Shown: in pieces, positions 1,176-10,091 of the stretch
How the letters are laid out: each line of letters opens with the position of its first letter
Position numbering within the stretch: position 1 is the stretch's first letter
From: Candidatus Saccharimonadota bacterium
GTDB taxonomy: Bacteria > Patescibacteriota > Saccharimonadia > Saccharimonadales > UBA4665
Assembly (NCBI GenBank): GCA_002952755.1
Contig: CP025011.1
Span: 900,001 to 932,000, forward strand
Direction of reading: 5' to 3'
Length of the DNA: 32,000 bases
The notes under the pieces: generated by a model
What the model saw: the letters and a program-made list of their open reading frames with translations, nothing else
What the model was told of the DNA's origin: nothing
The model's database searches: none
Program-made: the position numbers and the translations under genes

Positions 1176-2843
1176 ATGACAGTACAACGCGGCACATTTA
1201 TTGTTTTGGAAGGCGTCGATGGTTCGGGCAAAAGCACACAGTTCCGCCTGCTCGAAGCGCGCTTGCGTCAGGCAGGTTATGATGTGGTTACTTTTGATTT
1301 TCCGCAGTATGACCAACCCTCCAGCTATTTTGTCCGCGAATACCTAGCGGGCAAATACGGCGATGCCAACGCCATCGGCCCGTACACTTCCTCGCTTTTC
1401 TATGCACTGGATCGTTTTGAGGCTGCTCCGGCGATTCATGCCGCGCTTGACGCCGGCAAAATCGTACTAGCTGATCGTTTTACCGGCTCCAGCATGGCCC
1501 ATCAGGGGACCAAATTCCGTTCTCCCGAAGAACGGCGAGGCTATTTTATTTGGCTCGACAACCTCGAATTTGAGATGCTCAAAATTCCGCGCCCCGATTT
1601 GAGTTTTGTGCTGCGCGCGCCACCCGAGATCTCGCAGATGCTACTCGAGCAATCAGGCAAAGCGCGCGATGCTCACGAAAAAGACCCTCGTCATCTTGAA
1701 CATGCTCTGGCAGTGTATGACGACATGACCCAACTTTTCCCAAAGGACTTTCAACGGATCGACTGTGTCCGCGGCGACACATTAATGGAAATCGAAGCGA
1801 TTCAGTCATTGCTCTGGGAAAAGATCAGTCCCTTGCTGCCACCACCCTCGCAACTGGAAATGCCCATGCCCACCCTCTCTAAAGCCGAAGCTACTGCCTC
1901 GCCACAGATTATTGATGCAGCTGCCGCTGAAAAGATGGACGCCTACTACACCCCCGACTCACTCGACGATGACGTTAAGCGCCAGTACAAATTGCATATG
2001 GAGGCGATCATTCGACTGCAGGCCGATATGCATAAAAGCATCGGCACGTATTTGAAAGAACAAGGCCGCGACCCGCACGAAGCTGACGACTTGCTCGCAG
2101 GTCTGACACCGCTTGCCGTCTATGCTGCGGAAGATAGTCAACTTCGCGAGCACATTGAGCAGGGGAGTCTGGCTGCCCTCACCAAGCTTACTCAAGATAC
2201 ATTGCCCTCGCAGCATGCTGCCAGCACTGATGCTGTGCAACTCAGCGAAGTCTGGCCGCGTAACGAGTTCGACCTTATTCCCGACATGCTCTACGGTGCG
2301 AGCAATCTGCCGCTGGCCGACCTCCGGGCGCAAACCAACATTTGGCCCTACACTCGCAAACTTGATGTTATGGAAACATACCTGAAAAGTAGCAATAAAA
2401 CTGCATTCCAAAAAATCCGCTATACGTGGGACATCCTAAGCGACTATGTCTGCTATAAAGCCGTAAGCGAGCACTTCACTATTACGCCGCCGCATCAGCA
2501 GCTTACGCCGCGCTATGGTTATGATATGCCTGACGAAATTGACGCCGCAGGACTGACCGACCAATTCGAACTCGGCTTTGCAGCCAGCCTGGAACTATAC
2601 AGCTTCATGCAGCAAGCCGGGCTCGAACTTGAGGCGCAATACGCCGTACTGGCCGGCCATCGCATGCGCTGGAAGACAACGATCAGCGCCACCGAACTAC
2701 TCGAAACTGGCCTTGCCTCTACAAATAGTGCAATTCGGCCCCTCCTAAACACCATGCGCGAAAAGCTGGGCGAAGTACACCCTATGCTCGCCGAGGCAAT
2801 GTATCCACCATCGACCACTGCTGACTCAATACCAGACTTGTAG
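1176..2843 (+). CDS. tmk: thymidylate kinase (dTMP kinase) fused to a C-terminal ThyX-like (FAD-dependent thymidylate synthase fold) domain with degenerate catalytic motifs
   Basis: MTVQRGTFIVLEGVDGSGKSTQF carries the Tmk P-loop at the canonical distance from ATG 1176. GGAGG sits at 1159-1163. The track ORF starts at 1023, but those 51 extra residues have no Tmk counterpart. DRFTGSSMAHQG is the Tmk core. C-terminal segments line up with the T. maritima ThyX sequence as I recall it (see finding). Confidence 0.8.
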   Translation: MTVQRGTFIVLEGVDGSGKSTQFRLLEARLRQAGYDVVTFDFPQYDQPSSYFVREYLAGKYGDANAIGPYTSSLFYALDRFEAAPAIHAALDAGKIVLADRFTGSSMAHQGTKFRSPEERRGYFIWLDNLEFEMLKIPRPDLSFVLRAPPEISQMLLEQSGKARDAHEKDPRHLEHALAVYDDMTQLFPKDFQRIDCVRGDTLMEIEAIQSLLWEKISPLLPPPSQLEMPMPTLSKAEATASPQIIDAAAAEKMDAYYTPDSLDDDVKRQYKLHMEAIIRLQADMHKSIGTYLKEQGRDPHEADDLLAGLTPLAVYAAEDSQLREHIEQGSLAALTKLTQDTLPSQHAASTDAVQLSEVWPRNEFDLIPDMLYGASNLPLADLRAQTNIWPYTRKLDVMETYLKSSNKTAFQKIRYTWDILSDYVCYKAVSEHFTITPPHQQLTPRYGYDMPDEIDAAGLTDQFELGFAASLELYSFMQQAGLELEAQYAVLAGHRMRWKTTISATELLETGLASTNSAIRPLLNTMREKLGEVHPMLAEAMYPPSTTADSIPDL

Positions 2844-3585
2844 CCACGGGCACTAGCACGTCCGTATCTCCTGTTTCCAGAGCTAGATCCACCACCTCGG
2901 CCGCTCCGGGCCCAAGAGAGGCAGACTGAGTAGACGGCTCATCCAACATCTCGTGCCACTCAGGGTGCATTACGAGGGCTGATACTAGCGCCACCTGAGC
3001 CGTGTGTCTGTACATCTTCGGTGAATCATTATTATCCGAAAGCAACAAACCCCGGCACAGATTCAATATCGGCAGACGGCGCATGATAACCGGCAAACTC
3101 ATTCCAGACACACAATCATACGTATAGCTTCTGGTACGTGGAGCGTCGTCCAAAATAAATGGCGGTTGCATACCGCGAATGGCCGAAACTACAGAAGACG
3201 CGCCTACGGCATCAATGTCGGCAAAAGATTCGTACGGCTCGCGTTTAGATCCCACATGACATATACTGCCGAGCGCAATACGTCCGACAAGTGGCGTGGT
3301 AAGTGCCCACTCAGCTCTATCTGCCGGCCGGGGAGTCTTTTCCAAAAAAGCACTTACTTCCTTGCGACCATTTAGTTTGGCATGCCCGGGTACGAGCAGG
3401 TTTACCGCCACAGGCTGAACGCTATAGTCCCTTAGGCCCGCTGTTATTGCTTGTACTGCATCGGCATTCAGTCCCGGAATATATACACTTTTCTGGGGCT
3501 TTGGCTTTTGCGGCGGTGCATTGCCAAACAGATCTCCTTTTACTGTTCGACGTTTTCCGCCAACTGGTTCTGCGTTATGGCGCAT
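2782..3585 (-). CDS. hypothetical protein (267 aa), no recognisable domain
   Basis: Long ORF. Start set at MRHNAEPVGG because AAGGAG (plus-strand 3591-3596) lies 5 nt upstream of ATG 3585-3583. The 3' end overlaps the tmk fusion convergently by 62 nt. Confidence 0.6.
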   Translation of the reverse strand: MRHNAEPVGGKRRTVKGDLFGNAPPQKPKPQKSVYIPGLNADAVQAITAGLRDYSVQPVAVNLLVPGHAKLNGRKEVSAFLEKTPRPADRAEWALTTPLVGRIALGSICHVGSKREPYESFADIDAVGASSVVSAIRGMQPPFILDDAPRTRSYTYDCVSGMSLPVIMRRLPILNLCRGLLLSDNNDSPKMYRHTAQVALVSALVMHPEWHEMLDEPSTQSASLGPGAAEVVDLALETGDTDVLVPVATSLVLSQQWSMVDTLPRRA

Positions 3586-3610
3586 AGTTACTCCTTTTTT
3601 ATGCAGCCCA

Positions 3611-3646
3611 ACAAAAAACGAGCTCGGATTACGGTCGAGCTCGTTT
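3611..3646 (-). terminator. intrinsic terminator-like hairpin on the minus strand, 26 nt upstream of the 2782-3585 gene start
   Basis: Minus strand reads aaacgagctcg-accgtaatc-cgagctcgttt followed by tttgt. That is an 11-bp stem (3646-3636 / 3626-3616), a 9-nt loop and a run of six T. Confidence 0.65.
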
Positions 3647-3949
3647 AGTGTTTCGGATGGCAATGTATTAATTTCTATGGCAAAACGAGTGACCGCGGCG
3701 AAAGCGCAGCAAGAATAAAGCCCTGAAGGCTAATAATTGCTAAAATCGCGTGGTCCCGTGTAGTCATGTCCGACACACTATTGCACAACTTGGCAACGTG
3801 ACGCAATACCCACCAGAGATGATGCAGTACCTCATAGGGCGACTTCCGAATGTGCTTATTGTAAGTTTGCACGCGCACCCTATATTATTTTGAGTAAACC
3901 ATACACCCCGTCATGCTCAGCCTGACGCTGAATATCGGAAGAGAAATCT

Positions 3950-5749
3950 ATGAGGGAATTAGCAGGTTATTCAGAACAGCTTCCGGCGATTGATCCTACC
4001 TTAGATGCGTTACTAGCGTCGGTTGAGGCTAGTCGGGAGGATCCTTATGGGCTGTCGGTGCCCACCTTTACCTATTCGCGGGGCGCAATAGCTGGCATAG
4101 GCACAGCTCCCGCCCCACACACGCTGCCGTATCAGCCAGAAGAGTTTGCAAGGGACACCCGGATACATCCGATACCAAACACACCAGGTAAAACAATGCG
4201 AAGTGTGCTGGAATATGTAGGATTGGAGAGCGGTGGCCAGGCAGTATTCGTCACTCGCCACTACCCTAACTGCAGCCGATGGTTTGCAGCTCCAGTCGCA
4301 CCAGAACGAGTTGCGACACTAGCCTTAATCGGTAAGCGTCGCTTTGGCGCCGACTTTACCATCGGGGACAAACCCACCGATGACGATACACATTGGCCCA
4401 TAACATTCAAAGCCACCTATGGCTTCGAACCGACCTTTGACGGCGCTATTCCGGATGCATATTTCGACCCCCCGTCCGCGAGGAGGGAAGGTAAAGCGGG
4501 CCGCGACCGACGTCCTAGCCGTATGCTTGTTGCCGGTATAGTCGAAGATTTTTACTCATTCGATGAGATGAACATTCTATTCCGCCTACCTTCTGGCTGG
4601 ACGAAAACGCCAGCCTTCGCCAAAATTCGCTATGGCACTCTGGCGGCCGATATTGTATATGTTGCAGTCTACGATGATAGTGTAGGCGGGGCGGTGACTC
4701 CTGGGCATGAGTATGAATTTCTGCCGGGCGATGTGGTCCACGTCCCAACGAGCGTTTCAGCCGACACAATACTGGCTATAACTGATAGAGAATCAGAAAC
4801 TCCAGCCAAATTACTCCTACAGCCGCCTATGTTTACAGGTCCGGCAGATGAAAGAAAGGCCAACGTTATCGTAGCCGGCGAAGAACGTCTTAGCCGCTAT
4901 CAGACAACCCGCGGCATCATAACCGACTACCTAGATCATCTCAGACAAACCACAGACCCGAGAGCACAAGCTGCAGTTCTATCACGGCTTGCCAATGCAA
5001 CTTACTACACCTTACCGCAACATGCTGGATCGGACAGCACATGGGGAAGGGTTTGCCTAGAAGATGCCGATCTTGCCGCTATCAATGAAGTTCTAATGAC
5101 CATGGATGAAGCCGATAAACCAATATGCTCATTCCTCTTTGAAGAAAAGGCAAGAGACGGCTTTGCCTGTGGACGGGTGGCTGCACAAATGAGGGAACTT
5201 TTAAAATACCCCCAAGCACCACGAGGCCTAATTCATATGCAAAAACGCGAGATAGTAAGCCATACACTTCAACTACTGGCAGACCCACGCACAGAGGATC
5301 AGGGAGTCGCAGACTTCTTTACGTTCGCGTTAGAACGTGGCCATCCCGAAGGAAAAAAGGATCTTGTTAGAACTATCTTAGACAACCTAAGCCAGCTAGG
5401 CGCATACAGCATCGCAACAAGATCAGACATCTTAAAGAGTGTCTTCGATAGTACCGATCATCCCGATTTTGCGTCGGATTGCTTACTCGCCGTCCAAAGC
5501 ACACTTCGTCTTGGCAGCATTCTGAACGGCGAGCATATGCAAAATCTTATGTTTTCCGCTATTGACGGGCTTAAAGGTACGCATGGAGGGCAAAAGGAAG
5601 CGCCGGAGCTAAGTGCATGGTTGCATGTGGCAAAAGAATTACATGGCATTGCAAGCCTGAATTTTAATCAGCAAGGAATGCTCACTCACACAATCGCTGA
5701 GCTGGATGGTTACATAAAAGTTATCGAAAACCAGCTTAATTCTGCTTAG
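3950..5749 (+). CDS. hypothetical protein (599 aa), no recognisable domain
   Basis: Uninterrupted 599-codon ORF. Only short antisense ORFs overlap it. By eye it is rich in AGA/AGG/ATA codons compared with the housekeeping genes here. Confidence 0.7.
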   Translation: MRELAGYSEQLPAIDPTLDALLASVEASREDPYGLSVPTFTYSRGAIAGIGTAPAPHTLPYQPEEFARDTRIHPIPNTPGKTMRSVLEYVGLESGGQAVFVTRHYPNCSRWFAAPVAPERVATLALIGKRRFGADFTIGDKPTDDDTHWPITFKATYGFEPTFDGAIPDAYFDPPSARREGKAGRDRRPSRMLVAGIVEDFYSFDEMNILFRLPSGWTKTPAFAKIRYGTLAADIVYVAVYDDSVGGAVTPGHEYEFLPGDVVHVPTSVSADTILAITDRESETPAKLLLQPPMFTGPADERKANVIVAGEERLSRYQTTRGIITDYLDHLRQTTDPRAQAAVLSRLANATYYTLPQHAGSDSTWGRVCLEDADLAAINEVLMTMDEADKPICSFLFEEKARDGFACGRVAAQMRELLKYPQAPRGLIHMQKREIVSHTLQLLADPRTEDQGVADFFTFALERGHPEGKKDLVRTILDNLSQLGAYSIATRSDILKSVFDSTDHPDFASDCLLAVQSTLRLGSILNGEHMQNLMFSAIDGLKGTHGGQKEAPELSAWLHVAKELHGIASLNFNQQGMLTHTIAELDGYIKVIENQLNSA

Positions 5750-5813
5750 CGCATAGCAAAGTTACACCGCCCAACCGCCCTAGGCTAGAGCCACAAACTG
5801 GTGTCCGGAAAGC

Positions 5814-5842
5814 TTGACCAACCCACACCAGGAGAGTACAAT
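5814..5842 (+). promoter_or_regulatory. sigma70-like promoter TTGACC-N17-TACAAT
   Basis: TTGACC 5814-5819, 17-nt spacer, TACAAT 5837-5842. The predicted start near 5849 is 1-3 nt before ATG 5852. Confidence 0.55.
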
Positions 5843-5851
5843 TCCGTCATT

Positions 5852-5908
5852 ATGGCTAAAGGTTTCATGGGTCTCGTCCTTATTGTCGGCTCGGAAGAGC
5901 TCGGTTAG
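5852..5908 (+). CDS. candidate 18-codon leader peptide MAKGFMGLVLIVGSEELG
   Basis: ATG 5852 to TAG 5906-5908. Five consecutive Leu/Val/Ile codons lie at 5873-5887. The ORF sits between a near-consensus promoter and a terminator, and its stop lies inside a segment that can pair with the terminator 5' arm. Confidence 0.35.
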   Translation: MAKGFMGLVLIVGSEELG

Positions 5909-5932
5909 GCGCGGCCTCAAGAAACCACGACC

Positions 5933-5957
5933 AACCGGGCTCCAGCCCGGTTTTTTT
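5933..5957 (+). terminator. intrinsic terminator / attenuator hairpin 17 nt upstream of the 5974 gene
   Basis: aaccgggc (5933-5940) pairs with gcccggtt (5945-5952), loop tcca, and the T run extends to 5957 (ttttttt). Confidence 0.7.
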
Positions 5958-5973
5958 ATAATCAGAAAGAACT

Positions 5974-8910
5974 ATGACGACGAAAAGAATCATCGAACAA
6001 ACCAAGCAGCTGATGGCCATCCCATCCACCGGCGACAACCCTGCAGCCTTACAACAGGCCGTTGATTTTGTGGCCGATCTTGTCGCCAAAGTGCCCAATA
6101 TCACCATCGAGCGATTCGAGCAAAACGGCAAGCCCAGCTTTTTAGCCTACCGTGGTCCAGTGCGCCCTGAGGAATTCGACATCTTACTAAACGGCCATGT
6201 GGACGTGGTGCCTGGCAAACCAGAACAGTTTGTTGCGTACGAAAAAGACGGCAATCTCTATGGTCGCGGTGCGCTGGACATGAAAGGAACTGCGTTGTCG
6301 CTAACGTCGGCCTTTTGCGAGCTGGTTCATGAGGTGCCATACGCTCTAGGATTACAGATTGTCAGCGATGAAGAGGTCGGGGGACACGACGGGGTACGGG
6401 TGCAAATCGAAGACGGTGTTCGTGCCAAATTCGTCGTGATGGGTGAGTATGCCAACGACCGCCATACCATCTACAACGCCGCGCGCGGCTTATGTTGGGT
6501 AGACATTGCTTTTACCGGTAAAACGGCACATGGTGGACACCTGTGGCACGGCAGCAATGCGGTCATCAAAGCCGGCGATTTTGCCGGTGCTGTACTCAAA
6601 CGCTATCCGACGCCAGATAAAGAAACCTGGACTACTACCGCCAGCATCGCCAATCTCTCGACCCCTAACAACACCTACAACAAAGTGCCTGACTCAGCGC
6701 TGCTGAAGATCGACTTCCGCTTTACGCAAGAAGACCCGGTATTTGTCAATCGCGAATCACTAGAAGCATTCATAGCGAGTATCGACCCTGACGCCAAACT
6801 TGTGAATGTCGCCACATTCGAGCCAGCCGTTAACGTAGAGGAGCTGAATCCGTATGTCCAGGGATTGAGCAACGCCATGCGCAAAATCACCAATGAAGAG
6901 CCACATTTCCTGGGCCGCCCGGCGGGAAGCGATGGCCGCCACTTTGCCATGGTCAACTGCGACATCATCGAATATGGATTGTACGGCGGGGGTTCACACA
7001 GCGACCATGAGTATGTAGAACTGGCTTCGTTTGATGAATACCAATCCGTCCTACGCGCCTTTTTAAAGCAGCCCATCCCTGAACGTTTACGACAAGGCGA
7101 CAATGAGCAGAAACCACTCCACGAGCGGCTACTCCGCAAGCTGGTCAGTATGCACACTATAAGTAGTGACCGGAACGCCAACGACCACGCCCTTAACTTC
7201 GTGGAAGACTTTCTGAGCCAACGAGGTATGTATGTCGAACGATTCCAAAAAAACGGTATCGGCTCGATTATCGCTACCACCAAACCTGGCAATAAACAGC
7301 CAGCAGTCCTTCTAAATGCTCATATAGACGTCGTGCCCGGTGCTGAAGAGTCGTTTCACCTCAGACTGGAAGAAGGGCGCTTTATCGGCCGTGGTGTTAT
7401 GGATATGAAGCATGCTGTTGCCGCCTATCTCACGCTGGTCGACAATCTCAAGGACAATCTCGATGATTACGACTTTGGCATCATGATTAACAGCGATGAA
7501 GAAATTGGCGGCGCCAATGGTGCAAAAGCGCTTGTTGAGCTTGGATATTGGCCCAAGGTAGTTATTGTCCCCGATGGTGGCAATAACTGGGATATCGAGA
7601 CGTTCGCCAAAGGCGTGCAATGGATTGAATTGCAGGCTAGCGGCAAAGCCGCCCATGCGTCGCGCCCCTGGGAAGGTGACAGTGCTATCCAGCGATTGCT
7701 ACCGGCCTTGCAGGAAATTCGGACACTGGTATCAGCCGATCCGAAACCACAGGATACAATTCTGTCGATAGGTACAATCACCGGCGGCACTACCGCTAAT
7801 CAAATCCCGGCAGCCGCAACCGCGATGCTGGACATCCGCACTGGCACTGCAGAAGACCACAACGCACTGCCCGGCCGCATCGAAGAGATCTGCCAAAAAT
7901 ACGGCGTTGCTACCACCATTTTAGTGAACGACCCACCATGCGAGACCGACCTTACCGAGCCGCACGTACAGGCCATGGTCGAAATTGTGGAGCAGATTAC
8001 CGGCACAGCGCATGGCACCACCTTTGACTACGCAGTAAATGACGGACGCTTTTTCAGCGCTGCCGGCATTCCCACTATTGTTATCAATCCGGAATGTGGC
8101 AATATCCACAGCGACGAAGAATGGCTGTCGCAGGCTGGTTTTGCACAATTCTGCACCGTTCTGGAGACATATGTACAGCGGATTGCTAAAAACAGCAATA
8201 ACAGGGCATACGATATTGCCCGCCTGGCGAAGCAACTAAATAAATCCAACAAATCTGCCTACGTTTGGTACGCCGCCTACGGTTCGGGTCTATCTAAAGA
8301 AAACTTCATGCACCAAATTCGTGGCGGTCAGCCGGAGGGATCAACTCGGGCATTCGCCGGCTGCAGCGACCAGGCACCACCAAAAAAAGAAACCTTCATT
8401 TCTCTACCATATCCCTTGTATTTTGCCGGTACATGTACGGAGTGGGGCGGGGGGCATATCAATGTCCTGCCCGAGCCCTCCAACACTGCACACACCATCG
8501 CACGCGCTTACCTCATCACCGTAGAACAATTTGAGGAGATTGCTGCCCAGCAAAACGATCGCCTAGTGACGCAACCGCTGCCACTACGAAATGCCATGCA
8601 GCGGGGCCACGTCACCGTAGGCGATGGCAGTGGGCACTATGACGAGCTCTTGTTCTGCGGCACCAAAGACGACATCCCAGTTTTTACCCTCACTGCCGTC
8701 CGCCCCGAGCTACCCTATACCGCACCCACGCCGGTCTACACTAGACTCTTATGCAAGGGCCTATCCGAAAACAAGGATATCGACCAGCAAACGGCTATTG
8801 ATTATATGTTAGCTACTCCAGGTATTTCTGGTAACTATAAAAAGCATGACATCTTACGCTTGTTTGTCGAGGCTAACAAGCAGACAAACCCCGGGACTCA
8901 AACTAAATAG
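5974..8910 (+). CDS. tandem M20-family metallopeptidase (two complete ArgE/DapE/CPG2-like modules) fused to a C-terminal gamma-glutamylcyclotransferase-like (GGCT/AIG2-like) domain
   Basis: Module 1: NGHVDVVP, GRGALDMKG, VSDEEVGG, GGSHSDHEYVEL. Module 2: NAHIDVVP, GRGVMDMKH, NSDEEIGG, GNIHSDEEWL. C-terminal domain from codon 762 (nt 8257): YVWYAAYGSGLSKENF matches the YFAYGSNL-type GGCT N-terminal motif. Confidence 0.8.
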   Translation: MTTKRIIEQTKQLMAIPSTGDNPAALQQAVDFVADLVAKVPNITIERFEQNGKPSFLAYRGPVRPEEFDILLNGHVDVVPGKPEQFVAYEKDGNLYGRGALDMKGTALSLTSAFCELVHEVPYALGLQIVSDEEVGGHDGVRVQIEDGVRAKFVVMGEYANDRHTIYNAARGLCWVDIAFTGKTAHGGHLWHGSNAVIKAGDFAGAVLKRYPTPDKETWTTTASIANLSTPNNTYNKVPDSALLKIDFRFTQEDPVFVNRESLEAFIASIDPDAKLVNVATFEPAVNVEELNPYVQGLSNAMRKITNEEPHFLGRPAGSDGRHFAMVNCDIIEYGLYGGGSHSDHEYVELASFDEYQSVLRAFLKQPIPERLRQGDNEQKPLHERLLRKLVSMHTISSDRNANDHALNFVEDFLSQRGMYVERFQKNGIGSIIATTKPGNKQPAVLLNAHIDVVPGAEESFHLRLEEGRFIGRGVMDMKHAVAAYLTLVDNLKDNLDDYDFGIMINSDEEIGGANGAKALVELGYWPKVVIVPDGGNNWDIETFAKGVQWIELQASGKAAHASRPWEGDSAIQRLLPALQEIRTLVSADPKPQDTILSIGTITGGTTANQIPAAATAMLDIRTGTAEDHNALPGRIEEICQKYGVATTILVNDPPCETDLTEPHVQAMVEIVEQITGTAHGTTFDYAVNDGRFFSAAGIPTIVINPECGNIHSDEEWLSQAGFAQFCTVLETYVQRIAKNSNNRAYDIARLAKQLNKSNKSAYVWYAAYGSGLSKENFMHQIRGGQPEGSTRAFAGCSDQAPPKKETFISLPYPLYFAGTCTEWGGGHINVLPEPSNTAHTIARAYLITVEQFEEIAAQQNDRLVTQPLPLRNAMQRGHVTVGDGSGHYDELLFCGTKDDIPVFTLTAVRPELPYTAPTPVYTRLLCKGLSENKDIDQQTAIDYMLATPGISGNYKKHDILRLFVEANKQTNPGTQTK

Positions 8911-8957: not shown

Positions 8958-8986
8958 TTGACGCACGTGTCATGGTCATATAAAAT
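8958..8986 (+). promoter_or_regulatory. sigma70-like promoter TTGACG-N17-TAAAAT for rplJL
   Basis: TTGACG 8958-8963, 17-nt spacer, TAAAAT 8981-8986. This gives a ~178-nt leader before rplJ. Confidence 0.5.
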
Positions 8987-9083
8987 AGTCAGGAACATTA
9001 CCGAAGACCGTAGCTGTTTGCCCAGCAAACCTAAGTATGCTACCGAGGCGATGAAACAGTCTGTAAAGTTGTTTTTGAGCACG

Positions 9084-9121
9084 AAAAACCTTTGGTTTTG
9101 TCCCCAAAGGTTTTTTCTTTT
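9084..9121 (+). terminator. terminator-like hairpin inside the rplJ leader (possible L10-leader attenuator, or the terminator of the upstream gene)
   Basis: aaaaacctttgg (9084-9095) pairs with ccaaaggttttt (9104-9115), followed by tcttt. Located 50 nt upstream of rplJ ATG 9171. Confidence 0.5.
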
Positions 9122-9170
9122 GGGGGAATCCTTAACAATCCTAGGTCGAAGATTAATAACAAGGAACAAT

Positions 9171-9692
9171 ATGGCTTTAAGCAAAGATAAAAAGCATGAA
9201 GTCGTTCGCGAAGTAGCCGAAGCGCTTGCATCGTCAAAAATAACCGTGGTTGCAAGATACCAGGGCACGACGGTAAAAGCACTGCAGCAACTGCGCCGCG
9301 ACGCTCGCGCTGGCGGCACCAAATTACGGGTCGTCAAAAACCGCTTGGTAGTAAAGGCTTTAAGCGAAGTTGACGCCCTCAAAGGCGTCGACGCTAGTGC
9401 ACTCAACGGTCAACTACTCTACGCTTTTAACAGCGAAGATGAGGTAGCTCCCGCACAGGCACTTAATACGTTCGCCAAACTCAACCCAAGCATCGAATTT
9501 GTAGGCGGTATTACCGCACAAGGCACTTTCATCAGTGCCGAAGAAGTAAAAGCATTAGCTGTCTTGCCGAGCAAGGAACAGCTCATTGCGGAAGTGGTGG
9601 CAACGCTGCTCTCACCAGTACACGATGTTACCAATGGCCTTTCGGGCAATTTGCACGCGTTACTGGACGGCATCGAGGCCAAAGCAAGTTAA
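9171..9692 (+). CDS. rplJ: 50S ribosomal protein L10
   Basis: MALSKDKKHEVVREVAEALASSKITVVARYQGTTVKALQQLRRDARAGGTKLRVVKNRL is canonical L10. AAGGAA lies at 9161-9166. The track ORF start at 8958 is a spurious upstream extension. Confidence 0.9.
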   Translation: MALSKDKKHEVVREVAEALASSKITVVARYQGTTVKALQQLRRDARAGGTKLRVVKNRLVVKALSEVDALKGVDASALNGQLLYAFNSEDEVAPAQALNTFAKLNPSIEFVGGITAQGTFISAEEVKALAVLPSKEQLIAEVVATLLSPVHDVTNGLSGNLHALLDGIEAKAS

Positions 9693-9713
9693 TTTTGAAA
9701 GGAATCTAGCGAC

Positions 9714-10091
9714 ATGGCTGATTTAAAGAAATTTGCAGAACAGCTCGTTGGTTTGACTGTTCTCGAAGTAAACGAACTCAAGACCATCCTCAAGGATGAA
9801 TACGGCATCGAGCCAGCTGCTGCAGCTGTTGCCGTTGCTGCTGGTCCTGCTGCTGAAGCTGGTCCTGCTGCTGACGAAAAGGCTGAATGGGACGTTGTCC
9901 TGAAGGACGCTGGCGCTCAGAAGGTAGCCGTTATTAAGGCTGTTAAGGAAATCACTTCCCTCGGTCTTGGCGAAGCCAAGGCGTTGGTTGATGGTGCTCC
10001 TAAGACTATCCTCGAGAAGGCCAAGAAAGAAGACGCTGAGGCTGCCAAGAAAGCTTTGGAAGAAGCTGGCGCCGTTGTCGAACTAGCTTAA
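9714..10091 (+). CDS. rplL: 50S ribosomal protein L7/L12
   Basis: N-terminal dimerisation helix, an Ala/Pro hinge, and a C-terminal domain with [32 protein letters not shown]. Confidence 0.95.

Follow-up and report, generated by a model that had tools for sequence, protein, structure and literature searches.

What controls the gene that starts at position 5974 of the window, as we call the whole 32,000-nucleotide stretch of the Candidatus Saccharimonadota bacterium genome analyzed here? The original prediction had placed in front of this gene a leader-peptide attenuator of the trp/leu/ilv type, in which a short open reading frame (sORF) rich in branched-chain codons decides between an antiterminator (segments 2 and 3) and a terminator (segments 3 and 4). 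That arrangement was supported by comparative tests on the sORFs and pairings of relatives, and the region 5814-5957 is probably a ribosome-mediated (leader-peptide) transcription attenuator controlling the M20-M20-GGCT deacylase gene. As listed in Table 1, the promoter, the 18-codon sORF, the Leu-Val-Leu-Ile-Val run, segment 2 with its overlap of the stop codon and its complementarity to segment 3, and the segment 3:4 terminator with its T run were all found where they had been predicted.

Table 1. Positions of the leader elements in the window and of the genes behind them.
Feature	Position	Strand	Basis
Sigma-70-type promoter: TTGACC (5814-5819), 17-nt spacer, TACAAT (5837-5842)	5814-5842	+	10/12 consensus matches
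Leader sORF, 18 codons and TAG, MAKGFMGLVLIVGSEELG	5852-5908	+	homologous sORFs in all related loci
Putative regulatory codons Leu-Val-Leu-Ile-Val (CTC GTC CTT ATT GTC), codons -11 to -7 from the stop	5873-5887	+	family-wide Ile/Leu/Val enrichment
P1 hairpin GCUC-GGAA-GAGC (GCTC 5889-5892, GGAA 5893-5896, GAGC 5897-5900)	5889-5900	+	stem pairing kept in the family
Segment 2, GAGCTCGGTT; as 5' strand of the antiterminator, GAGCUCGGUU	5897-5906	+	best complement of the terminator 5' arm
Linker	5909-5932	+	stalled-state folds
Segment 3, AACCGGGCTC (antiterminator extent)	5933-5942	+	pairs with segment 2 or segment 4
Intrinsic terminator: AACCGGGC (segment 3), loop UCCA, GCCCGGUU (segment 4), U-tract to 5957	5933-5957	+	top terminator in the window
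Segment 4, GCCCGGTT, T run onward to 5957	5945-5952	+	
Gene of 978 aa, M20-M20-GGCT (GGCT from predicted structure), start 17 nt past the U-tract	5974-8910	+	Pfam, NCBIfam, Foldseek
Second attenuator-like element	3613-3767	-	own duplex match to own terminator
Second element, sORF MTTRDHAILAIISLQGFILAALSPRSLVLP	ATG 3767 to TAG 3677-3675	-	
Second element, segment 2, CUCGUUU	3689-3683	-	
Second element, terminator: 5' arm 3646-3636, 3' arm 3626-3616, U-tract to 3613	3646-3613	-	
Gene behind the second element, 267 aa	2782-3585	-	AAGGAG Shine-Dalgarno about 6 nt before ATG 3585

Ranking of the promoter-like sites in the window placed this promoter joint first. The terminator, an 8-bp stem with six G-C pairs followed by U7, ranked first of its kind, and the other terminator-like sites in the window were no commoner than in shuffled sequence. 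Because ATG 5852 lies 9 nt past the -10 box, the mRNA would be leaderless or carry a 5' UTR of 0-3 nt; promoter spacing is the basis on which both the transcription start and leaderless translation are predicted. The leader measures 122 nt from the predicted start to the gene, and the 112-nt transcript has a folding energy of -46 kcal/mol (z = -4.1). Segment 2 overlaps the stop TAG at 5906-5908 and nearly duplicates the 3' arm of the terminator, a mimicry of segment 4 that holds throughout the family. P1 is formed by segment 1 and the 5' part of segment 2, and it is possibly a weak anti-antiterminator and also a pause hairpin. The GGAA tetraloop originally assigned to it is present in the window and its stem is conserved, but the GGAA is not, the loop being any four bases.

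Comparison with the 4227 Rfam families, amino-acid leaders, T-boxes, SRP RNA and sRNAs among them, gave best matches of 10-16 bits (E 1-7) at 5740-5990, all confined to the terminator, and an Rfam search of positions 1700-4100 of the locus L012 returned none. No tRNA or tmRNA was found. The combination of a promoter, a GNRA-capped hairpin of about 100 nt, a terminator and dnaX 5 kb downstream had raised the idea of an SRP RNA. An SRP (4.5S) RNA or other known small RNA was rejected, with no such Rfam match even at E <= 10, no SRP domain-IV motif and a hairpin that is not conserved.

The gene behind the leader had been described as a peptidase gene 17 nt downstream. Its ATG at 5974 was confirmed, but the product is better described as an ArgE/DapE-family deacylase: the 978-aa protein contains two M20 deacylase domains of this family (Pfam; NCBIfam TIGR01910, 288 bits). 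For its C-terminal part, the AlphaFold model (pLDDT 92) matched the gamma-glutamyl-cyclotransferase (GGCT) fold in Foldseek (2RBH, E 3e-5), and no Pfam or PDB match was obtained by sequence; the predicted-structure match is what supports a GGCT domain here. In relatives, the position upstream is occupied by a ligase-like family. The 599-aa protein encoded there in the window (3950-5749) was considered as a homologue and rejected, having no BLAST, Pfam or NCBIfam similarity and no leader before it.

The same arrangement was found in front of the M20 gene at 18 of 18 related Saccharimonadia genome loci. It consists of a TTGAC-N17-TAnnnT promoter, a start codon 5-10 nt past the -10 box, an sORF of 15-35 codons, an Ile/Leu/Val run and a terminator, and at all 18 loci the stop codon lies in or adjoins the segment complementary to the 5' arm of the intrinsic terminator. 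The sORF persists in relatives with its branched-chain run, as predicted, and the distance between run and stop is constant. TTGAC-N16-19-TAnnnT occurs at a matching distance from the sORF start in more than 40 related elements, and the spacing of 5-10 nt between -10 box and start codon likewise holds in more than 40. A composite scan that was independent of sequence similarity (a promoter, an sORF starting 4-10 nt past the -10 box, and a terminator 8-75 nt past the stop) detected 40 elements in 301 kb, comprising the window and related loci, versus 0 in each of five dinucleotide shuffles. Nine further elements came from a context-free pattern scan of metagenomes. Additional copies were found with a covariance model (R1), which finds the second element of the window weakly (15 bits) and therefore misses divergent classes. 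The family totals 52 elements in 300 kb, a count that does not represent independent events because related elements share ancestry. Most of the 52 are of the Ile/Leu/Val class, nine are of a Phe/Tyr/Trp class and one encodes a Met-rich peptide. Two candidates were discarded: the match of the generic scan in L020 is the known L10 leader, and the antiterminator pairing of a Cys-containing sORF in L008 (809-965) was unconvincing.

The hosts of the family are soil and rhizosphere Saccharimonadia, which carry several copies per genome, placed before different genes. Between the end of the U-tract and the downstream start, always on the same strand, lie 0-28 nt, and this start usually has an AAGGAG Shine-Dalgarno sequence and lacks a promoter of its own. 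The targets include M20 deacylases, a protein with the YbdK/Glu-Cys-ligase fold and some genes without known function. Behind aromatic-class leaders there are genes for small proteins (about 60-120 aa) or for proteins of about 300 aa, which belong to no family and show little mutual similarity.

The best complement of the terminator 5' arm was the 3' end of the sORF in 21 of 21 elements (20 from genome loci and that of the window). When the 5' part was masked as by a stalled ribosome, 29 of 30 elements folded into the 2:3 antiterminator, and RNAalifold of the stalled-state fragments returned the 2:3 helix as the consensus. With its 5' part masked, the sequence from the window gives -23.2 kcal/mol, against -16.3 kcal/mol for the terminator state. 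Pairing of segments 2 and 3 was in register in 86% of cells, compared with 25-47% when the strands were slid. The linker between them varies in sequence and spans about 20-50 nt; within the antiterminator hairpin it usually folds into a small stem of its own. Conserved structure is otherwise confined to the 3-4 bp P1 stem, in which 94.6% of cells pair, both strands have changed at two of the pairs and the loop varies, and to the terminator, which shows compensatory changes, one pair having gone from G-C to A-U in nine sequences. The long hairpin of the minimum free energy (MFE) fold of the window (5861-5926) is not conserved, and an extended 1:2 hairpin, considered as a conserved anti-antiterminator, was unsupported by RNAalifold. 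The antiterminator is preferred in 7 of 21 full-length MFE folds without any ribosome, and the anti-antiterminator is a 4-bp hairpin; therefore, termination would need a ribosome at the stop.

Covariation in the 2:3 helix, which the original prediction had anticipated, was scarce in the core class, where the helix is conserved instead. Segments 2 and 3 showed one double change in 276 cells (covariation term -0.02), and position 5 of segment 2, mismatched in half of the members, varies without tracking segment 3. Covariation in the core alignment is uninformative because both strands are nearly invariant, and a cross-class comparison of matched and mismatched duplexes was used in its place. About ten different sequence solutions for segments 2 and 3 exist, each matching its own terminator, for example GAGUUCGAUU:AAUCGAACUC, GGAUUGAGC:GCUCAAUCC, GGGGUUGAG:CUCAACCCC and GUUGAAGCCUGA:UCAGGCUUCAAC. 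Matched duplexes reached -17.4 kcal/mol, compared with -14.7 kcal/mol for mismatched ones, and the divergent members, whose own sequences match their own terminators, reached -16.7 against -11.7 kcal/mol; neither difference was equaled in 10,000 permutations (0/10,000 each). Each of the 14 members whose central mismatch is G.G or G.A has one more pair at the flank, either G:C or U:A. The RNA segment is also kept where the peptide is not: the conserved segment of the Phe/Tyr/Trp class is translated in two different frames, GGAUUGAGC giving Gly-Leu-Ser in four elements and Arg-Ile-Glu in two, and at the locus L018 (minus strand) a stop within the P1 loop removes Glu-Arg-Gly from the peptide and leaves the RNA segment in place.

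The composition of the leader peptides was compared codon by codon. Ile, Leu and Val occupy 63-83% of codons -10 to -7 family-wide, versus 23% of the residues of the window's proteins, and this peak falls on the codons where a stalled ribosome would uncover segment 2. T is found at position 2 of the run codons in 71% of cases, at position 1 in 12% and at position 3 in 37%, and CTC, ATT and GTC are the favored codons, a bias that could come from RNA-level constraints rather than tRNA choice. The runs are not purely branched-chain, with Met, Phe, Cys, Gly, Ser and Glu interspersed. The second class has runs of Phe, Tyr and Trp, such as FFYGWFF, FFYGFFF and FYGFFFAF, with aromatic-to-aromatic substitutions (TGG to TTC or TTT); this class argues for amino-acid-specific codon sensing.

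A second attenuator-like element lies on the minus strand of the window (Table 1). Its antiterminator duplex has -17.6 kcal/mol and ranked first of 14 when compared with pairings to the terminators of other elements. Its promoter, read by eye, is weak (TTGCGT-18-AATAGT), and the 267-aa protein encoded behind it had no family match.

Taken together as a mechanism, these features would work as follows. Transcription would begin a few bases ahead of ATG 5852, and a 70S ribosome would translate the leaderless sORF as RNA polymerase advances. With charged Ile, Leu and Val tRNAs plentiful, the ribosome would reach the UAG at 5906-5908 and cover segment 2, leaving segments 3 and 4 to pair and transcription to end in the U-tract (5951-5957) with a transcript of about 105 nt. 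With these tRNAs poorly charged, it would stall on the codons at 5873-5887 and hide the 5' half of P1, so that segment 2 would stay free and pair with segment 3; no terminator would form and the deacylase gene would be transcribed. The leading edge of a ribosome extends about 12 nt beyond the A site, and the geometry of masking rests on this span. We infer the transcription start, the translation of the sORF, the stalling and the starvation-dependent read-through from the sequence.

Specificity for Ile, Leu and Val is what separates this mechanism from one in which a ribosome-dependent attenuator reports general translation capacity (any amino-acid shortage, ribosome-targeting antibiotics or low ribosome supply, for example) and the hydrophobic run is a by-product of RNA-level constraints for a pyrimidine-rich tract. 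The Met, Phe, Cys, Gly and Ser codons in the runs and the strong skew to NUY codons, suggestive of nucleotide-level selection, would fit such a sensor, as would homologous genes of about 300 aa whose leader is aromatic in one genome and of the Ile/Leu/Val class in another. However, the two classes differ sharply and each is conserved in its codons even though the RNA sequences diverge, the periodicity of T follows the reading frame, and the Ile/Leu/Val peak lies at positions from which a stalled ribosome would leave segment 2 free; we therefore regard a general sensor as unlikely. A trans-acting protein or RNA that recognizes GGCUC-N4-GAGCKCGGUUAG, with the sORF irrelevant or modulatory, would account for the core class being conserved most strongly in P1 plus segment 2 and for the little covariation within that class. 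It is nevertheless quite improbable, given that other classes replace this motif with unrelated sequences yet keep the sORF, the run and the stop in the antiterminator, that an ORF always runs from a start codon near the promoter to a stop at segment 2, and that no T-box or other Rfam family matches.

The leader might also be a gene in its own right, producing an sRNA of about 105 nt or the mRNA of a small hydrophobic protein, lying merely upstream of a deacylase gene transcribed from elsewhere. It has its own strong promoter and terminator and a stable structured transcript (z = -4.1), and RNAs derived from attenuators can act in trans in other bacteria (rnTrpL, PMC6614838). This proposal has very little chance of being correct, since the element always precedes, by 0-28 nt and on the same strand, a gene that has a Shine-Dalgarno sequence and lacks a promoter, and recurs several times per genome before different genes. 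Moreover, the peptide can do without its C-terminal residues, two reading frames are used across the conserved RNA segment, and 18 residues are too short for spanning a membrane. Almost negligible, in our estimate, is the chance that the product is a secreted short hydrophobic peptide, an SHP-like pheromone or RiPP precursor encoded beside its processing enzyme: the peptides do resemble streptococcal SHPs in size (PMC13361665) and peptidase-family genes adjoin them, but the adjacent genes include no Rgg-type regulator, exporter or radical-SAM gene, a conserved mature peptide is hard to reconcile with the aromatic class and with segment 2 being read in a shifted frame, and the complementarity of the stop region to the terminator would be left unexplained.

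Of the known systems, the leaderless ilvB leaders found in Actinobacteria come nearest to the attenuator proposed here. The C. glutamicum ilvBNC leader peptide IlvL, for example, is MTIIRLVVVTARRLP (PMC11857589). This leader and the ilvB1 leader of M. tuberculosis likewise have an sORF at or about 1 nt from the transcription start and without a Shine-Dalgarno sequence (here by promoter spacing), mixed Ile/Leu/Val regulatory codons, and terminator, antiterminator and (putative here) anti-antiterminator hairpins, with a short terminated transcript expected (PMC11857589, PMC13236596). In contrast, no sequence or covariance-model similarity to them was detected, the leader is shorter (122 nt, versus 292 nt in C. 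glutamicum and 166 nt in M. tuberculosis), the stop codon lies within the antiterminator strand, and several copies occur per genome. The targets differ as well, being deacylase and gamma-glutamyl-type enzymes in an amino-acid auxotroph rather than branched-chain biosynthesis genes. The enterobacterial leaders of ilvGMEDA (ilvL), ilvBN (ivbL) and leu (leuL) share with the Saccharimonadia element Ile/Leu/Val codon runs with biased codons, mutually exclusive 2:3 and 3:4 hairpins and a terminator before the first gene; a Shine-Dalgarno sequence, a longer leader, a strong 1:2 pause hairpin and biosynthetic operons are found only in the former, and no Rfam family of enterobacterial leaders matched the element at E <= 10. 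The aromatic class resembles the pheA and pheST leaders, in which a Phe-codon run in the leader ORF is followed by a terminator, but has mixed Phe/Tyr/Trp runs, a leaderless sORF and small or about 300-aa downstream genes. T-box riboswitches have the same input, tRNA charging, and the same choice between terminator and antiterminator, but they bind uncharged tRNA directly and need no ORF, and no T-box model matches here. Mycobacteria have leaderless poly-Cys sORFs (Canestrari 2020) and a whiB7 uORF responsive to alanine starvation (PMC10274678). There, too, amino-acid-specific codons in leaderless sORFs are reported to tune downstream genes, non-biosynthetic ones included; the amino acids and targets are different, and not all of them act via a terminator overlapping the sORF stop.

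Gene regulation in CPR/Patescibacteria is very poorly understood. Our literature search found no report of ribosome-mediated attenuation in this group, and the original prediction likewise knew of none in such reduced genomes. Leader-peptide attenuation itself is classical; what is new is this proposed attenuator family, with at least two amino-acid classes, in reduced genomes. In organisms that make no amino acids, the attenuators would tie enzymes able to release particular amino acids from acylated, gamma-glutamylated or peptide-bound forms to a shortage of those amino acids, a physiological logic that we offer as conjecture. Only tentatively, and at somewhat less than even odds, do we extend this to a regulon of leaderless attenuators in several classes (Ile/Leu/Val and aromatic ones, possibly also Met-type and further hydrophobic variants) that would be a principal amino-acid-shortage sensor of auxotrophic soil Saccharimonadia, and whose YbdK/Glu-Cys-ligase-fold, ArgE/DapE and GGCT targets would define an unrecognized CPR salvage route via gamma-glutamyl- or N-acyl-amino acids. 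The compact signature of promoter, leaderless sORF, stop in the antiterminator and terminator could be used for scanning CPR genomes. The leaders would also tag each gene that they precede with an amino acid, a functional hint for genes that annotation otherwise leaves as hypothetical, such as those of the YbdK-fold ligase and the GGCT-fused deacylase and several small ones without known function. If the attenuator reading is true, bacteria with reduced genomes and amino-acid auxotrophy sense the charging state of specific tRNAs and switch on salvage enzymes instead of biosynthesis.

Every sequence feature of the original prediction upstream of the M20-M20-GGCT gene was found in place when checked against the sequence. 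The features comprise the promoter, the leader sORF, the P1 hairpin (its 5' half being segment 1), segment 2 (the antiterminator 5' strand) and the segment 3:segment 4 terminator stem, as listed in the table. A window-wide consensus scan ranked the promoter joint first (10/12) and the terminator first; the frequency of other terminator-like sites did not exceed that in shuffled sequence. The predicted fold of the 112-nt transcript was -46 kcal/mol (z = -4.1). A second attenuator-like element, absent from the original prediction, was detected on the minus strand; its promoter was weak, and the 267-aa protein encoded behind it had no family match.

Coordinates of the window element and related features (L numbers are related loci with their own coordinates; pairs are segment 2 : segment 3)
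Feature	Locus	Position	Strand	Details
Promoter	Window	5814-5842	+	TTGACC 5814-5819, 17-nt spacer, TACAAT 5837-5842; read from sequence
sORF	Window	5852-5908	+	ATG 5852, TAG 5906-5908; 18 codons, MAKGFMGLVLIVGSEELG; start nine bases past -10 box
Run codons	Window	5873-5887	+	CTC GTC CTT ATT GTC; read from sequence
P1 hairpin	Window	5889-5900	+	GCTC-GGAA-GAGC; read from sequence
Segment 2	Window	5897-5906	+	GAGCTCGGTT; complement of AACCGGGCTC (segment 3, 5933-5942)
Terminator	Window	5933-5957	+	AACCGGGC-TCCA-GCCCGGTT + T7; read from sequence
Downstream gene	Window	from 5974	+	978 aa; two M20 domains
Second element	Window	3613-3767	-
Second element sORF	Window	3767-3675	-	ATG 3767, stop 3677-3675; MTTRDHAILAIISLQGFILAALSPRSLVLP
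Second element segment 2	Window	3689-3683	-	CUCGUUU; matches terminator arm AAACGAG
Second element terminator	Window	3646-3616	-	U-tract to 3613
Gene behind second element	Window	2782-3585	-	267 aa; ATG 3585, AAGGAG Shine-Dalgarno
Ligase-family genes behind ILV leaders	L004	2192-3808
	L028	10001-11629
	L029	10001-11638
	L012, L018, L020-L022
Aromatic leaders	L021	12151-12296	+
	L019	5307-5454	+
	L012	about 1795-1942	-
	L004	about 1816-1964	-
	L009	about 2414-2562	-
	L002	about 3192-3336	-
	L017	about 3211-3358	-
	L028	about 9626-9776	-
	L029	about 9611-9753	-
Met-rich leader	L018	about 6351-6472	-	MIMAKAICMTSSFMMNS; upstream of single-domain M20 gene, 377 aa
Pair	L018		-	GAGUUCGAUU : AAUCGAACUC
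Pair	Aromatic class			GGAUUGAGC : GCUCAAUCC; segment 3 is the terminator's distal arm + loop
Pair	L011		-	GGGGUUGAG : CUCAACCCC
Pair	L017		-	CGGAUUGGGC : GCCCGAUCCG
Pair	L002, second element		+	GUUGAAGCCUGA : UCAGGCUUCAAC; related sequence in L027
Pair	L008			GAGCGGC : GCCGCUC
Pair	L014			AGCGGU : ACCGCU
Pair	Window, second element		-	CUCGUUU : AAACGAG plus GCGGUC : GACCGU

Homologues of the 978-aa protein all came from Saccharimonadales/Saccharimonadia (CPR) metagenome-assembled genomes (MAGs), and a genome scan with alignment of the M20 homologues yielded 18 loci. In most of these, nhmmer placed the window leader immediately before the M20 gene; several had a second copy ~1.8 kb further upstream. 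Reading of the sequences recovered the predicted arrangement of promoter, sORF and terminator in all 18: a shared promoter (TTGAC-N16-19-TAnnnT), a start codon 5-10 nt past the -10 box, an sORF of 15-35 codons, a variable linker, a G+C-rich terminator and a downstream start codon, mostly preceded by AAGGAG. In the core class, the close relatives of the window's leader, the sORF had 15-24 codons and its peptide consisted of a hydrophobic run followed by Gly/Ser-Ser-x-Glu-Arg/Leu-Gly-stop. Nine further elements were retrieved from metagenome contigs by a context-free pattern scan, before genes for M20 proteins or for a protein family of ~480-550 aa. The composite signature occurred 40 times in 301 kb (window and loci) versus none in five dinucleotide shuffles, and all scanner matches were hydrophobic or aromatic leaders, save an L10 leader and an sORF with Cys codons. 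The total was 52 elements (34 core Ile/Leu/Val [ILV], 8 divergent hydrophobic, 9 aromatic and 1 Met-rich), counts that overstate independence because the elements share ancestry. Two loci (L001, L017) with the element and a Saccharimonadia-type M20 gene lay in MAGs labelled 'Bacillota bacterium' and 'Candidatus Pristimantibacillus sp.', probably through binning or labelling errors.

The proposed pairing of segment 2 with segment 3 was borne out across relatives. When the upstream 60-110 nt were searched in 21 elements (the window's and 20 from genome loci), the terminator 5' arm found its best complement at the sORF 3' end in every case, with the match stopping 1-15 nt short of the stop codon's last base. 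With the 5' part masked as by a stalled ribosome and the terminator 3' arm left out, 29/30 elements folded into the 2:3 helix; for the window, the energies were -23.2 kcal/mol in this state versus -16.3 with segment 2 masked as by a ribosome that has reached the stop. In alignment A2 (28 core elements), 86% of the helix cells were paired in register versus 25-47% when slid. The covariation expected of this helix was hardly seen within the core (RNAalifold covariation term -0.02), because both strands are nearly invariant. The terminator and P1 hairpin did covary, with 13 cells changed on both sides, a value reached by 0/500 shuffles. A G.G or G.A mismatch interrupted the middle of the helix in half of the core members, and an extra flanking pair was present in 14/14 of these (G:C in eleven, U:A in three). 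The anti-antiterminator amounts to no more than a 4-bp hairpin, and the antiterminator was preferred in 7/21 full-length folds, so a ribosome positioned at the stop is probably required for termination. In many core-class members, a Shine-Dalgarno-like AAGGAG lies 6 nt before UAG, across the P1 loop and segment 2 (e.g., L004 2095-2112; window 5893-5908), and could hold the terminating ribosome on segment 2.

Divergent members, found with a covariance model and a similarity-free scanner, kept the architecture with different segment 2:3 sequences. Each sORF end was paired with its own terminator arm and then with the arms of other elements. The mean duplex energy was -17.4 kcal/mol for own arms versus -14.7 for foreign arms (-16.7 versus -11.7 in the divergent subset), and 0/10,000 permutations reached the matched-pair value in either set.

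Selection in the leader was visible at the codon level. Over the seven codons preceding the conserved tail, position 2 was T in 71% of cases, versus 12% for position 1 and 37% for position 3. Counted back from the stop, the ILV share was 63-83% at codons -10 to -7 (23% in window proteins), 3-7% at -6 to -3 and -1, and 37% at -2, where Leu alternates with Arg. Leaders also differed from window genes in the shares of CTC among Leu codons (65% versus 23%), ATT among Ile codons (84% versus 42%) and GTC among Val codons (55% versus 29%). A bacterial ribosome shields ~12 nt past the first base of the A-site codon; one waiting at codons -9 to -7 would therefore hide the P1 5' half and leave segment 2 exposed, and these codons coincide with the ILV peak. 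In M20-linked leaders, the run was immediately preceded by a conserved second Met (MAKGFM.., MKQFM.., MNKSM.., MKKMM..), and ligase-linked leaders were richer in Ile (..IILGLIILGSKERG); these differences may stem from unequal amino-acid weighting or from a second start codon.

The aromatic leaders (example peptides MQSVTQTVYALTQAFFYGWFFAPARVGLSTR, MQTLIQPAAANVANFFYGFFFAPLQAGLSTR, MVQIIQQIRALQDKGFYGFFFAFVRVRIEP and MVYTNSLINVAKVWGFFGFYFAYAYKRIER) carried runs including FFYGWFF, FFYGFFF, FYGFFFAF and WGFFGFYFAYAY, preserved through Trp/Phe/Tyr interchanges. The genes behind them encode small (about 60-120 aa) or ~300-aa proteins of no known family. Aromatic and ILV leaders were divergent, with back-to-back promoters, in L004 (~1965-2010), L012 (~1945-1985), L009, L021 and L028 (~9780-9830), the -35 boxes making a palindrome-like GTCAAC...GTTGAC. 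The minus-strand genes of L009 (306 aa) and L016 (302 aa), homologous by blastp (E 3e-17), were preceded by leaders of different classes, one aromatic and the other ILV. At L008 809-965, a terminator accompanies a seemingly leaderless sORF containing three Cys codons (MTQPTQNQQLTIACCRRSCDRRTTGAVS); the antiterminator pairing was unconvincing, and the gene 100 nt downstream may encode a PIG-L/LmbE-type deacetylase, which its N-terminus resembles by eye.

Other explanations were considered. A small-RNA gene was suspected because a ~100-nt GNRA-capped hairpin lies between a promoter and a terminator, 5 kb upstream of dnaX; a known small RNA such as SRP RNA was rejected, as no Rfam family matched the element even at E <= 10 and weak matches covered the terminator only. 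ARAGORN detected no tRNA or tmRNA in the window. The sole Rfam family there was the L10 leader (RF00557, 59.5 bits, 8983-9127), which immediately follows the M20 gene and has a strong promoter at 8958-8986 (TTGACG-17-TAAAAT). The leader runs are mixed, not pure ILV, and their codon bias could instead be an RNA-level constraint. A functional small protein would not predict a tail conserved as RNA and a run conserved as codons, which a leader-peptide attenuator does. This pattern follows from two observations: the conserved aromatic-class segment 2 is read in two frames (Gly-Leu-Ser in some leaders, Arg-Ile-Glu in others), and the Met-rich leader has its stop codon in the P1 loop, so that its peptide lacks the Glu-Arg-Gly tail and the RNA segment is retained, with the 2:3 pairing fully compensated. 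This single example may represent a Met-type class.

The comparative evidence thus supports a leader-peptide attenuator, whose proposed mechanism is the one known from trp, leu, ilv and phe operons. Judged from sequence, a terminator/antiterminator switch that depends in some way on the sORF is very likely, and ILV sensing by ribosome-mediated attenuation appears probable. In design, the elements come closest to the leaderless ilvB leaders of Actinobacteria. For C. glutamicum, whose leader peptide is MTIIRLVVVTARRLP, a three-hairpin model is described and the transcription start lies a single nucleotide from the start codon (PMC11857589); M. tuberculosis has a similar ilvB1 leader (PMC13236596). 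In contrast, the Saccharimonadia elements show no sequence or covariance-model similarity to these, have a far shorter leader whose antiterminator strand contains the stop codon, precede non-biosynthetic genes, and occur in several classes per genome in a CPR host. No paper tying Saccharibacteria, Patescibacteria or CPR to leader peptides or attenuation was found in the full-text literature. Together with its relatives, the window element forms a family that is new within an established type of regulator.

TIGR01910 matched the M20 domains with 288 bits (cutoff 217.6), which places them in the ArgE/DapE deacylase subfamily. The C-terminal 228 residues had no sequence match; their model (pLDDT 92) matched human gamma-glutamyl cyclotransferase (2RBH, E 3e-5), which supports the predicted GGCT domain at the fold level. 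The second putative target family, annotated as hypothetical with no Pfam domain on record, was modelled (pLDDT 91) with a YbdK/gamma-glutamylcysteine-ligase fold (Foldseek match 1R8G, E 6e-9). The conserved gene order runs from a thymidylate-kinase fusion gene through an opposite-strand small gene with an aromatic leader, the ILV leader with the ligase, the ILV leader with M20, and the L10 leader with rplJ and rplL, to dnaX and dnaB. In the window, a 599-aa protein (3950-5749), with no leader before it, takes the place held by the ligase-fold gene in relatives; it had no Pfam/NCBIfam match and no detectable kinship to that gene. On the models, the YbdK-fold ligase, GGCT-fold domain and ArgE/DapE deacylases look like a set of gamma-glutamyl-cycle enzymes, and we conjecture that ligase, deacylases and cyclotransferase serve salvage via gamma-glutamyl- or N-acyl-amino acids.
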